Shown here: positions 16,730 to 19,286 of the stretch, piece after piece | Layout: the number at the start of each line of letters is the position of its first letter | Position numbering within the stretch: position 1 is the first letter of the stretch | From: an uncultured Candidatus Saccharibacteria bacterium | Lineage (GTDB): Bacteria > Patescibacteriota > Dojkabacteria > J137 | Reading direction: 5' to 3' | DNA: 64,000 nt | Assembly (NCBI GenBank): GCA_965230975.1 | Contig: OZ246402.1 | Span: 800,859-864,858, forward strand | Made by a program: the position numbers and the translations under genes | The notes under the pieces: generated by a model | Told to the model about the DNA's origin: nothing | Database searches by the model: none | What the model saw: only the letters and a program-made list of their open reading frames with translations

Positions 16730-17305
16730 TTAACCTTCTTTATTTAATTTATATTGTTCGTAAACTAAATCTTCTTCTTTTGCAGAGAGTAGATTCATCG
16801 ATTTTAATCCAGTAATAATTTCTAAAATTCCTTTTTTGCCTATTCCTATTACAGGAAACTCATCTGTACCATGCAATAACTGGTATTTTACATAACCCAC
16901 TAAATGATATTTCTTTCTTTTTAAAACATTATGATAAATTGTAGATAGATTTAATGTGTCAATACTTACAGAAGGGTATTTCTCACTATTATTTTCACCT
17001 ATCAAGCTAATTATAATTGACTCGGTGTTTTGTATATTTACGGTTTTTAAGACTAAACCCGCTTCTAATCTATCTATATACCCTCTGTTAAACAAATTAA
17101 CTATTAGGTCTTGATATGATTCTCTAAACCCACCTGGAATATCTACAAGACCACCATTTCTAAAGTATCTTAGTCGTTTTAGTAAATCAGCAATCGTATA
17201 AATCCCTTTAGATTTTAAATGATCAATAAAATTATCTGGTAGTTCTAAAACTGCAATATCTAAATTTGTATCTTTATTTTGTAAGTAATCTGGTTGTGAA
17301 CTCAT
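16730..17305 (-). CDS. RpoA alpha-CTD-like helix-hairpin-helix protein, paralog 3 (short)
   Basis: ...LIGENNSEKYPSVSIDTLNLSTIYHNVLKRKKYHLVGYVKYQLLHG...GIGKKGILEIITGLKSMNL parallels the RNAP alpha-CTD pattern [20 protein letters not shown]...LGKKSLTEIKDVL. An extra N-terminal HhH-like motif (IDHLKSKGIYTIADLL) is present. Confidence 0.55.
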   Translation of the reverse strand: MSSQPDYLQNKDTNLDIAVLELPDNFIDHLKSKGIYTIADLLKRLRYFRNGGLVDIPGGFRESYQDLIVNLFNRGYIDRLEAGLVLKTVNIQNTESIIISLIGENNSEKYPSVSIDTLNLSTIYHNVLKRKKYHLVGYVKYQLLHGTDEFPVIGIGKKGILEIITGLKSMNLLSAKEEDLVYEQYKLNKEG

Positions 17306-17339
17306 TTTATGGATATTAACTTGGTTGCATACTACTTTT

Positions 17340-18287
17340 CTATACTTCTAAAGGAATATCATATTTAGCTAATATTTGGATAAACTGATCTTGAGTAATA
17401 TACCCTTTCTGAATTAATTGGCTTGCTATCTCTTTAATTGATTTTTTTGAAAATTGGTTTAAAAGTAGTGGAGTTGATATTTCAAGCAACATGAATTTAA
17501 TCTCACCAACTGTGTGGTAACCATTTATGAATAAATTAAAGTGTAAACTTGAATCTAAGGATAGCGCACCCAATGGAATTTCCGGATATTCCTCGCTTGT
17601 ATTGGCTCCTAATAACCTAATTAAATCCAATTGTCCTGCACCTCTATTTAAACACTTAATGTATACTTCGGCTTCTATTCTGCTAAATAAGTTCATTTTA
17701 TAAAGTTTAGCAATACAGTCGCTAAAATCGTAAGGTGTAGAACCATTATCTATTCTTATTCCTCGCTTGACTAAAGACTTTAGAAGGTCCATAAGTTGAC
17801 CGACAGTATTAATATTGCTTTGATTGACAAGGCTTTGTAAGTCCTCATTTAAATCTAGCACACTTACATTGAGGGCTGCTGCATCTTCAGGGGATATTGG
17901 TTGACTTAGTAAGTAGTCTTTAAAGTCTGCTACTGTTAAGGTGGCAATATCGGGCAAAGTTTGTTGTATATCTGAAAGTAGTCTTATAACTTGTGCATGC
18001 TTTGTGGTATCTACTTCACCTTCATTTGCCAATACTTGGATTTTTGCTAATGCTAATGCTTTTATTGCTGGGAATTCCGGATTGATATTTGGGTTATTTG
18101 CTACATAGTTAAGGTAGCTAGCTATTGATATATCTGTAAAGCCGGCATCTAGTAATTGTTTTATTTGTAATTCCAAAACTGTATTACTTGTTGGGGGGAT
18201 TACATCCGGATCCTGTAATCGTGTATAAACTGGGAAATGCTGAAATGCCATATCAAGTTGAGTAATATGTATACTCGATATTAACAC
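17340..18287 (-). CDS. RpoA alpha-CTD-like helix-hairpin-helix protein, paralog 2
   Basis: Shares with its neighbours the motif block SRIEAEVYIKCL...LLGANTSEEYPEIPLGALSLDSSLHFNLFINGYHTVGEIKFMLL...SKKSIKEIASQLIQKGY. An internal HhH-like motif is also present (LQSLVNQSNINTVGQLMDLL). Confidence 0.55.
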   Translation of the reverse strand: MLISSIHITQLDMAFQHFPVYTRLQDPDVIPPTSNTVLELQIKQLLDAGFTDISIASYLNYVANNPNINPEFPAIKALALAKIQVLANEGEVDTTKHAQVIRLLSDIQQTLPDIATLTVADFKDYLLSQPISPEDAAALNVSVLDLNEDLQSLVNQSNINTVGQLMDLLKSLVKRGIRIDNGSTPYDFSDCIAKLYKMNLFSRIEAEVYIKCLNRGAGQLDLIRLLGANTSEEYPEIPLGALSLDSSLHFNLFINGYHTVGEIKFMLLEISTPLLLNQFSKKSIKEIASQLIQKGYITQDQFIQILAKYDIPLEV

Positions 18288-18353
18288 CTTGTTACTAATT
18301 TAGACAATCAGTTTTGTCATATCTTTTGCGTAACAAAGGTGGATAATTATTAG

Positions 18354-19286
18354 TTAGGCCTCAATTTCAAATCTGGCATATATTTCTTTTTTGTAATCTT
18401 CCTCCGATTTCTCATCATCTTTAAAATATCCTTTAGATATTAAAGCCTCAGTTATTCCTTTTATTCCACTTACCCCTATATTCTTAACATTGAATTCAGG
18501 GCCTCCAAATAAAAGCTCGTGTTTAACTTCTCCTATAAAAATATAACTACCTCTCATTAAAGCATTATATGTTCTTCTAGGAAGATCTAATTCAGATATA
18601 TCTATAGAAGGGAAACTTTCACTATTATTAGCTCCTATCAAGTTATCTACTTGACTCTCATCAGGAAATCTTGCAATAAATCTTAAATACAAACCTGCTT
18701 CTATTCTAGATATATAATTTAATTCAAATAGTTGAACTACTAAATCTATAAAAACTGGGTTATTCATAATACGACTAGCAAACTGGTAATCTTCTCTGAT
18801 TGTTCTTAAGAGCTGTACTAAATCTGAAATATTTTGAACGTTTCTTGATTCTAAAAGTGCTCTTAATTCTCCACTAGGTCTAATCATTTCGATTGAATCT
18901 TGTAAGTTGCCTGGAATTCCTGATTGCATTGTGGATTGATATATAAAATCCAAAAAACTTTCAACTGTTAGTGCTGATAAGTCTTCTGAGTTATCGTAAG
19001 CATATTGTAAAAGTGCGTTTAATTTTAAATAGTTTGATTCTTCAATATCACCTTTCTGTACTAATTGTTTTATTCTAAGTAAAACTACAGAAGTTATTGC
19101 AGAGTAGGTGGATTTATCTATTGATTCTAAGTTTTGTAAGTATGCAAAATATAAACTTATTTGAATATCTTCAAAATCGTTTGCTAAGATTTGAGATATA
19201 AGAGCTAAAAGATTATCTGCATGAATCTTTACATTTTCTGGTAAATCTTCAGAACTTAAGTAATTGTTTAGAGCTGCAAATACCAT
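18354..19286 (-). CDS. RpoA alpha-CTD-like helix-hairpin-helix protein, paralog 1
   Basis: This C-terminus is the closest match of the three to the alpha-CTD: ELDLPRRTYNALMRGSYIFIGEVKHELLFGGPEFNVKNIGVSGIKGITEALISKGY. A second HhH-like motif lies upstream (LRALLESRNVQNISDLVQLL). Confidence 0.55.
   Translation of the reverse strand: MVFAALNNYLSSEDLPENVKIHADNLLALISQILANDFEDIQISLYFAYLQNLESIDKSTYSAITSVVLLRIKQLVQKGDIEESNYLKLNALLQYAYDNSEDLSALTVESFLDFIYQSTMQSGIPGNLQDSIEMIRPSGELRALLESRNVQNISDLVQLLRTIREDYQFASRIMNNPVFIDLVVQLFELNYISRIEAGLYLRFIARFPDESQVDNLIGANNSESFPSIDISELDLPRRTYNALMRGSYIFIGEVKHELLFGGPEFNVKNIGVSGIKGITEALISKGYFKDDEKSEEDYKKEIYARFEIEA

Follow-up and report, generated by a model that had tools for sequence, protein, structure and literature searches.

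A strain-variable tandem array of paralogous proteins with two alpha-CTD-like domains lies beside a heliorhodopsin gene

We have analysed a stretch of 64,000 nucleotides of contig OZ246402.1 (assembly GCA_965230975.1), here called the window, and in particular three consecutive minus-strand open reading frames (ORFs) at 16730-19286, the genes C, B and A. They lie between the permease gene of an ABC-2 type ATP-binding cassette (ABC) exporter and a heliorhodopsin (HeR) gene, in a window with a G+C content of about 31%. A preliminary description had presented them as a tandem triplet of novel proteins which resemble the C-terminal domain of the RNA polymerase subunit alpha, RpoA (aCTD). The three proteins are indeed paralogs: BLASTP gives E 1e-24 between A and C, E 1e-28 between B and C and E 3e-16 between A and B, and the block RIEA..YL...LxGANxSExYP, already noticed in that description, is invariant in all three. 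Judged from sequence, the host is a Dojkabacteria-like member of the Patescibacteria, or Candidate Phyla Radiation (CPR). The HeR of the window is 79% identical to the HeRs of two Candidatus Dojkabacteria metagenome-assembled genomes and the next-best matches, from Chloroflexota and others, reach 61-63% identity; HeRs have already been reported in Dojkabacteria (PMC9166423).

The three-dimensional fold of the aCTD, a short N-terminal turn followed by four helices with two helix-hairpin-helix (HhH) motifs, is present in the family. Measured against the Pfam gathering cut-off of 23.8 bits for PF03118 (RNA_pol_A_CTD), A lies above it with 31 bits (E 2e-7) in two stretches, C lies below it with 19.9 bits, and B gives no match. 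A profile of the three paralogs compared with the PDB matched RpoA aCTDs only, over the full 60-residue domain and with a best E of 1e-4. The AlphaFold2 model of C, computed with seven family sequences, is all-helical, with a predicted local distance difference test (pLDDT) score of 82.5 and a predicted template modelling (pTM) score of 0.67, and Foldseek places it with isolated aCTD chains at a probability of 0.96-0.98 (3k4g_B, 9gdo_G). The proposal of an aCTD-like fold holds.

The extra HhH-like motifs which had been noted N-terminally in each protein are real and, according to hhalign, constitute a second aCTD-like domain. As the target we used 13 small aCTD proteins, two of which, when run against Pfam, proved to be genuine PF03118 proteins (67-69 bits). 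The C-terminal domain matched them with a probability of 98.6% and E 1.3e-15, and the middle region (C residues 126-192 and their equivalents) with a probability of 95.8% and E 7.5e-9 over 63 columns, whereas the negative controls, the N-terminal domain and the linker, matched nothing in this set. Because the middle and the C-terminal regions both match and the controls stay blank, each family protein in the window has two aCTD-type domains, aCTD1 and aCTD2, and a conserved linker of two helices between them. At the N-terminus of B and C there is, in addition, an orphan helical-bundle domain (N-domain) of about 120 residues. Neither a signal peptide nor a transmembrane segment was found in the sequences of A, B and C, and the family is cytoplasmic, all-helical and lineage-restricted. 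Could these proteins be subunits of RNA polymerase? None of the three has a Pfam match to the RpoA N-terminal domains (RNA_pol_L, RNA_pol_A_bac), and of the NCBIfam rpoA models only the last ~70 positions are matched, at 15-28 bits compared with cut-offs of 228-434. Since they lack the alpha N-terminal domain, A, B and C are not RNA polymerase subunits. The coordinates of the array and of its immediate neighbours are collected in the table.

Table. Genes, protein domains and neighbouring elements of the array, in window positions
Feature	Positions	Strand	Remarks
Paralog C	18354-19286	-	310 aa
C, N-terminal helical domain	18921-19286	-	
C, aCTD-like domain 1	18717-18911	-	
C, linker	18612-18716	-	RIEAGLYL...LIGANNSESF
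C, aCTD-like domain 2	18423-18611	-	
C, C-terminal helix and acidic tail	18357-18422	-	
Paralog B	17340-18287	-	315 aa from GTG 18287, or 303 aa from ATG 18251
B, N-domain	17895-18251	-	
B, module junction	17842-17895	-	motif LTVxxFKxYL at the end of the N-domain; inter-strain similarity switches on/off here
B, aCTD-like domain 1	17691-17885	-	
B, linker	17586-17690	-	
B, aCTD-like domain 2	17397-17585	-	
B, tail	17343-17396	-	
Paralog A	16730-17305	-	191 aa, without N-domain
A, aCTD-like domain 1	17081-17269	-	
A, linker	16976-17080	-	
A, aCTD-like domain 2	16787-16975	-	basic, +4, canonical GIGKKG hairpin
A, tail	16733-16786	-	
ABC ATPase, upstream of permease	20180-21058	-	NCBIfam PmtA/GldA/DrrA-like, below equivalog cut-offs
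ABC-2 permease, upstream of C	19360-20187	-	Pfam ABC2_membrane_2
Spacer, permease stop to gene C	19287-19359	-	promoter-like TTGATA-18-TAACAT (TG-extended) at 19337-19308, a consensus match only
Spacer, A to HeR	16657-16729	-	73 nt; promoter-like TTGACT-17-TACCAT at 16717-16689
HeR, directly downstream of A	15880-16656	-	PF18761 E 1e-99; NCBIfam HeR E 2e-104
Intrinsic-terminator-like hairpin after HeR	15824-15846	-	10 pairs, 6 GC, then T run

Searches for relatives showed how narrow the family is. The main one was an exhaustive HMMER comparison of the paralog profile with 1.84 billion cluster representatives, which returned as family members the three window proteins, their positional alleles from related strains (P0002, P0004 and P0005, and later P0086 and P0087) and one distant relative, P0050. 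The other matches were about 80 non-family proteins with 1-6 canonical aCTD (PF03118) repeats, several of which are fused to Sigma70_r4, Spo0A_C or HARE-HTH. With so many strong repeats outside RpoA, the earlier remark that stand-alone aCTD-like proteins are uncommon has to be withdrawn; aCTD modules are widespread outside RpoA and form a class that is uncharacterised, and it is the architecture of a double aCTD with an N-domain that is confined essentially to one lineage. With C and A, a word-indexed search of 5.8e9 clusters gave self matches only, and with B it gave three alleles. No family member was found in the GTDB species genomes or in two scans of JGI metagenome contigs, no relatives were found among the IMG/VR viral contigs, and PADLOC and PHROG gave no significant match for the paralogs, a single Cas2a match at E 0.016 being noise. 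The whole protein belongs to no family of Pfam, NCBIfam, PHROG or PADLOC, which together with the few relatives bears out the description of the family as novel. Because the public collections gave almost no relatives, the phylogenetic profiling that had been suggested for the family cannot be done. In the literature searched we found no paper on stand-alone or tandem aCTD proteins.

The distant relative P0050 (194 aa) and a 190-aa neighbour form a tandem pair at 10001-11171 of a 1.14-Mb contig (ENA ERZ25039495 contig_16963, here L004). A divergent mfd and a convergent uvrA flank this pair, and neither a HeR nor an ABC-2 exporter gene lies within 10 kb of it. The best PDB match of the N-domain profile (B and C) is the UvrA of T. 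maritima (3pih_A, residues 155-215, E 0.018); no stretch of this match is significant alone and it is probably due to chance, but it is curious in view of the uvrA gene beside the L004 relatives. An amphipathic helix with the pattern [IL]xxx[YF]x[IL] was seen at the C-terminus of every family member, the distant L004 pair included, and in nine of 11 members a terminal Glu with one small residue (EA, EV, EG or ES) follows this tail helix. The exceptions in the tail are P0087, which ends in -QEN, and the L004 pair, which has the terminal ES without the helix motif.

Five related contigs were compared with the array of the window. One of them, L086, has no gene C; a clean indel of about 1 kb, located between the stop of the permease gene and the stretch in front of B, accounts for its absence. 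The triplication is therefore true of the window but not a general feature; it is strain-specific, L086 having two copies only. In L002 and L003 the flanks are 90-100% identical to the window in DNA, while the C alleles are unalignable in DNA and only 12-50% identical to the C of the window per protein domain. The B alleles of L002 and L090 have an N-domain which is 92-100% identical to that of the window and a remainder which is 23-44% identical; in DNA, the identity is about 90% upstream of 17842-17895 and the sequences are unalignable downstream. In both of these strains the 12-aa N-terminal extension of B begins with ATG, where the window has GTG. The B of L086 presents the reverse pattern, with 61% DNA identity over the N-domain and 97.8% over the remainder. 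A recurrent recombination breakpoint lies in B at ~17842-17895, the junction of the N-domain and aCTD1. The window and L086 are 98-100% identical in the stretch that begins near codon 120 of B and reaches the middle of A; codons ~120-303 of B are almost unchanged and codons 1-65 of A wholly so. The differences between their A alleles fall nearly all in a linker patch of ~85 nt with ~26 substitutions. The preliminary description had not noted this mosaic between strains. The array is a cassette locus, with gain or loss of gene C and recombination that exchanges alleles where the N-domain meets the aCTD.

Is this variation directed, or does it simply reflect decay? A diversity-generating retroelement or other targeted hypermutation was rejected, because the substitutions are not adenine-specific, all four bases being affected, and no repeat pair is present (no direct repeat longer than 31 nt in 15400-21300). 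Shuffling among the paralogs was also rejected: P0002, P0004, P0005 and P0087 are no closer to the other paralogs of the window (12-41% per domain) than to their positional counterpart. The same applies to an origin from phage or defence systems, for which there was no PHROG or PADLOC match; the G+C content of the array is that of the surrounding genome. In Nei-Gojobori estimates, the ratio of nonsynonymous to synonymous substitution rates (dN/dS) is 0.03-0.08 for the ABC genes, HeR and Obg (0.06-0.08 for the ABC genes and 0.03 for HeR compared with L086), and 0.24 for C, 0.43-0.47 for B and 0.76 for A. Since every strain has intact paralog ORFs, with confident models and a dN/dS below 1 (0.24-0.76), these genes are functional and not decaying.

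In each of the three contigs that extend far enough upstream (the window, L002 and L086) the array comes immediately after the ABC-2 permease, a position which is more constant than the adjacency to HeR. A wider comparison with L086 shows that the block from tRNA-His through the ABC ATPase, the permease and the paralogs to HeR (15886-21242) is 88-94% identical in DNA and its flanks less so (Obg 80%, LiaF-like 72%, GNAT-like 68%), with the order of Obg and GNAT swapped. The higher identity of the block than of its flanks suggests that it was recently exchanged by recombination between diverged lineages. Beyond tRNA-His (21161-21235) each strain carries a different island (21161-24759 in the window, 1-8000 in L086). 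The island of the window contains a 974-aa ORF (21228-24152; its 3' end shares 8 nt with the tRNA, which is on the opposite strand) and another of 207 aa, both without a Pfam, NCBIfam or PADLOC match; that of L086 contains an AriA/OLD/GajA-like ATPase (PADLOC AriA, E 3e-20) and five orphan genes.

Other features of the region were seen in passing. An imperfect 32-nt inverted repeat, 78% complementary and with a 21-nt spacer, lies at 15652-15736 in the 440-nt intergenic region between HeR and Obg. At 11464-13133 there are two adjoining membrane proteins of 322 and 226 aa with a LiaF-TM domain, of a kind typical of cell-envelope stress modules, with ~72% DNA identity to L086. Farther away, at 35268-47838, there is an ORF of 3202 aa, which carries FN3 and purple-acid-phosphatase-N-like domains close to the C-terminus, and after it comes a MacB-like ABC ATPase fused to an FtsX permease (986 aa), in a region with a G+C content of 0.37 compared with 0.31. 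This is probably a giant surface protein together with its own exporter.

What could be the role of these proteins? From the fold, the number of domains, the cytoplasmic nature and the mosaic evolution of the family we infer, tentatively, that they are accessory adaptors which bind nucleic acid or the transcription machinery, and we consider this the most likely of the roles discussed here. The aCTD domain belongs in a DNA or transcription setting because non-RpoA proteins that contain it are fused to Sigma70_r4, Spo0A_C or HARE-HTH. We hypothesize that aCTD2 would dock on the minor groove and the backbone of DNA, probably AT-rich in a genome of 31% GC, and with little specificity. For this it could use the GhG/KK hairpin in A and the equivalents of R265 and N268 in the C-type alleles, on a domain which is neutral to basic. 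The degenerate aCTD1 and the acidic N-terminal bundle may mediate self-association or the binding of a partner, and A, which lacks the N-domain, perhaps acts as a short competing form. The exchange of modules between alleles would then change the specificity for a partner or a target. If this is true, the aCTD fold of RNA polymerase has been reused in a reduced CPR genome as a free-standing, duplicated and rapidly exchanging module, and the family would point to a class of accessory proteins, binding DNA or the transcription machinery, that has so far gone unrecognised in bacteria with few recognisable transcription factors.

In E. coli the aCTD binds the minor groove of the UP element via R265, N268, C269, G296, K298 and S299, and R265 is the residue most critical for its binding to DNA. 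Our mapping of these contacts rests on a hidden Markov model alignment to the M. tuberculosis aCTD and on the E. coli numbering of the literature. In aCTD2 the N268 equivalent is kept in six of 10 alleles (C, P0004, P0005, A, L086A, L090C), that of G296 also in six and that of K298 in five, and no allele of the 10 keeps all the mapped residues of the full 265 determinant. The domain is neutral, and in A it is basic (+4, isoelectric point 9.6), with a textbook GIGKKG hairpin. A number of results speak against an adaptor that binds DNA. The equivalent of R265 itself is kept in aCTD2 of only three of 10 alleles (C, P0004 and P0005), and aCTD1 has none of the 265-determinant residues and no basic contact residues. 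The C allele of L090, although its gene is ~90% identical to that of the window in DNA and 87% in protein, has R replaced by G at the R265 position; the two alleles differ in LDLPRRTYNAL vs LGLTRGTVNAL and in NIGVSGIKG vs NIGTVRIKE, and both segments are equivalents of the ligand surface of the aCTD. Moreover, the net charge of the whole proteins is -1 to -20, from -1 to -4 in A and from -8 to -20 in the B- and C-type alleles. The family also comprises one species-level lineage and one distant pair, so that no phylogenetic profile or conserved neighbourhood backs any role, and its hypervariability between strains fits a role in conflict or immunity at least as well as a regulatory one. The preliminary description had suggested binding to AT-rich, UP-element-like DNA, and this part of it is weakened: because the R265 equivalent is kept in so few alleles and the proteins are acidic, such binding is plausible, but it is not a constant of the family. 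For the question of what the aCTD surface recognises, the strain mosaic is a ready series of natural alleles, with one gene cleanly gained or lost, recombination at a domain boundary, and nearly identical segments next to unalignable ones.

The main competing explanation is that the paralogs are aCTD mimics or decoys in a genetic conflict, which bind not DNA but other proteins, such as host regulators or those factors of phages or mobile elements whose normal target is the aCTD of RNA polymerase, and whose alleles diversify in an arms race. The presence or absence of C, the module swaps with sharp boundaries beside segments of 98-100% identity, a dN/dS 3-10 times that of the neighbouring genes, the clustering of the C-allele differences on the ligand surface and the acidity of the proteins would all suit such decoys, as would the proximity of a variable island which is flanked by tRNA-His and in L086 carries the AriA/OLD/GajA-like ATPase. 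However, the paralogs match nothing in PADLOC or PHROG and have no relatives on viral contigs of IMG/VR, their dN/dS does not rise above 1, no more than 4-5 alleles are available, and conserved ABC genes lie between the array and the island, and on balance we regard this explanation as unlikely. Cassettes that are tandem, hypervariable and present in only some strains are typical of immunity arrays. Could the proteins then be immunity-like cassettes of the ABC-2 exporter, acidic cytoplasmic proteins that neutralise a toxin in bacteriocin or toxin self-protection? The constant place of the array after the permease speaks for it, and so does the resemblance of the ATPase to PmtA-, lantibiotic-protection- and DrrA-type exporters, although this stays below equivalog cut-offs. 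Yet we saw no gene for a toxin or a bacteriocin in the locus, and immunity proteins are not known to adopt the aCTD fold. The L004 relatives have no ABC neighbour and module exchange within a protein is unusual for immunity proteins, so this seems to us highly improbable. That the paralogs act in trans as replacements for an aCTD lost from the RpoA of the host is suggested by the similarity in fold only. No other Dojkabacteria or CPR representative in the 1.84e9 clusters has the family, the number of copies varies between strains and the functional determinants of the aCTD are poorly kept. Such copy variation and weak determinants do not befit an essential part of RNA polymerase, and this explanation, rejected on distribution, has in our opinion almost no chance of being correct.

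More questions were raised by the neighbouring HeR, since the preliminary description had considered a triplication next to a photoreceptor to be of note. Is it possible that the family are lineage-specific partners of HeR, which would sense light and signal via A, and perhaps B and C, to DNA or transcription? A and HeR share a strand and are separated by 73 nt, the gaps from C through B and A to HeR contain no terminator comparable to the strong one after HeR, and L086 has the same order of A and HeR. HeRs are reported to pair with different partners according to lineage, such as glutamine synthetase (PMC9529153), photolyase (PMC9769723) and two-component genes (PMC8612252). Moreover, the L004 pair, which comprises the family's only distant relatives, sits between mfd and uvrA, a context related to light and UV damage. 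To the neighbourhoods of 80 HeR loci from GTDB species representatives (six-frame ORFs, 10-kb flanks where the contig allowed) we applied the family profile at E<=0.01, but not one of the 80 loci contained a family member or an aCTD-like gene, and the two closest Dojkabacteria HeRs, at 79% identity, had unrelated neighbours only. In L090, B is followed by a convergent gene for a PKD-domain surface protein, with no A or HeR there on a contig that ends ~0.56 kb past B. The 66 nt before the ATG of HeR, including TTGACT-17-TACCAT, are 100% identical between the window and L086; because this is so despite 90% identity in the HeR coding sequence and a 30-nt indel directly after the A stop (window 16657-16729, L086 11559-11661), it suggests that HeR has its own promoter in a constrained, HeR-specific regulatory region. 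The synonymous divergence (dS) of HeR from L086 is 0.59, against near-zero change across much of B and A, and HeR and the paralogs have different divergence histories. Since the pairing is absent elsewhere and HeR has its own conserved promoter-like region, we find it very doubtful that the double-aCTD proteins are the cytoplasmic output of HeR, or of a broader response to light or UV damage acting on DNA or transcription-coupled repair. The adjacency is real, and it is best read as local gene order in a species group; it does not speak for a light-signalling pathway. For the biology of HeR this is mainly a negative result, and this neighbourhood alone should not count as evidence for a HeR partner.

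The nearest known fold is the aCTD of RpoA (PF03118; PDB 1z3e_B, 3k4g, 1coo), from which the family differs in that its domains are not attached to the alpha N-terminal, dimerisation domain, occur twice in each protein and keep the 265 determinant only in patches. Unlike the RpoA aCTD, they also have a longer loop before the second hairpin (LLxGxxEFxV), a feature which they share with non-RpoA aCTD proteins. Compared with reported HeR partners, A resembles them as a gene on the same strand adjoining HeR, but its adjacency is not conserved and it lacks the coupling by overlap or a short spacer (73-103 nt, with a separate conserved promoter-like element). Other (HhH)2 or sterile alpha motif (SAM)-like modules, such as the N-terminal domain of RAD51C/RAD51D, the HhH of REV1 and BAF, scored below the aCTD and gave no match at the level of sequence. 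The members of the L004 pair resemble B and C in that they adjoin each other as paralogs and have the same helical domain at the N-terminus (motif GF.D.SI..YL), after which comes an aCTD-like domain; that domain, however, is single and the RIEAG/GANxSE linker is missing. The literature searched reports no tested function for the family or for the non-RpoA PF03118 proteins. The latter, with 2-6 tandem copies, some of them fused, as well as small single-domain forms, are like the family aCTD modules outside RNA polymerase. However, their canonical repeats score 65-250 bits, whereas the domains of the family are very divergent (0-31 bits) and occur together with a conserved linker and a unique helical domain at the N-terminus, in what is essentially one lineage. 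What is new here is a very narrow variant of the aCTD-fold modules outside RpoA, with a novel N-domain, a doubled aCTD and the dynamics of a cassette at the level of strains.

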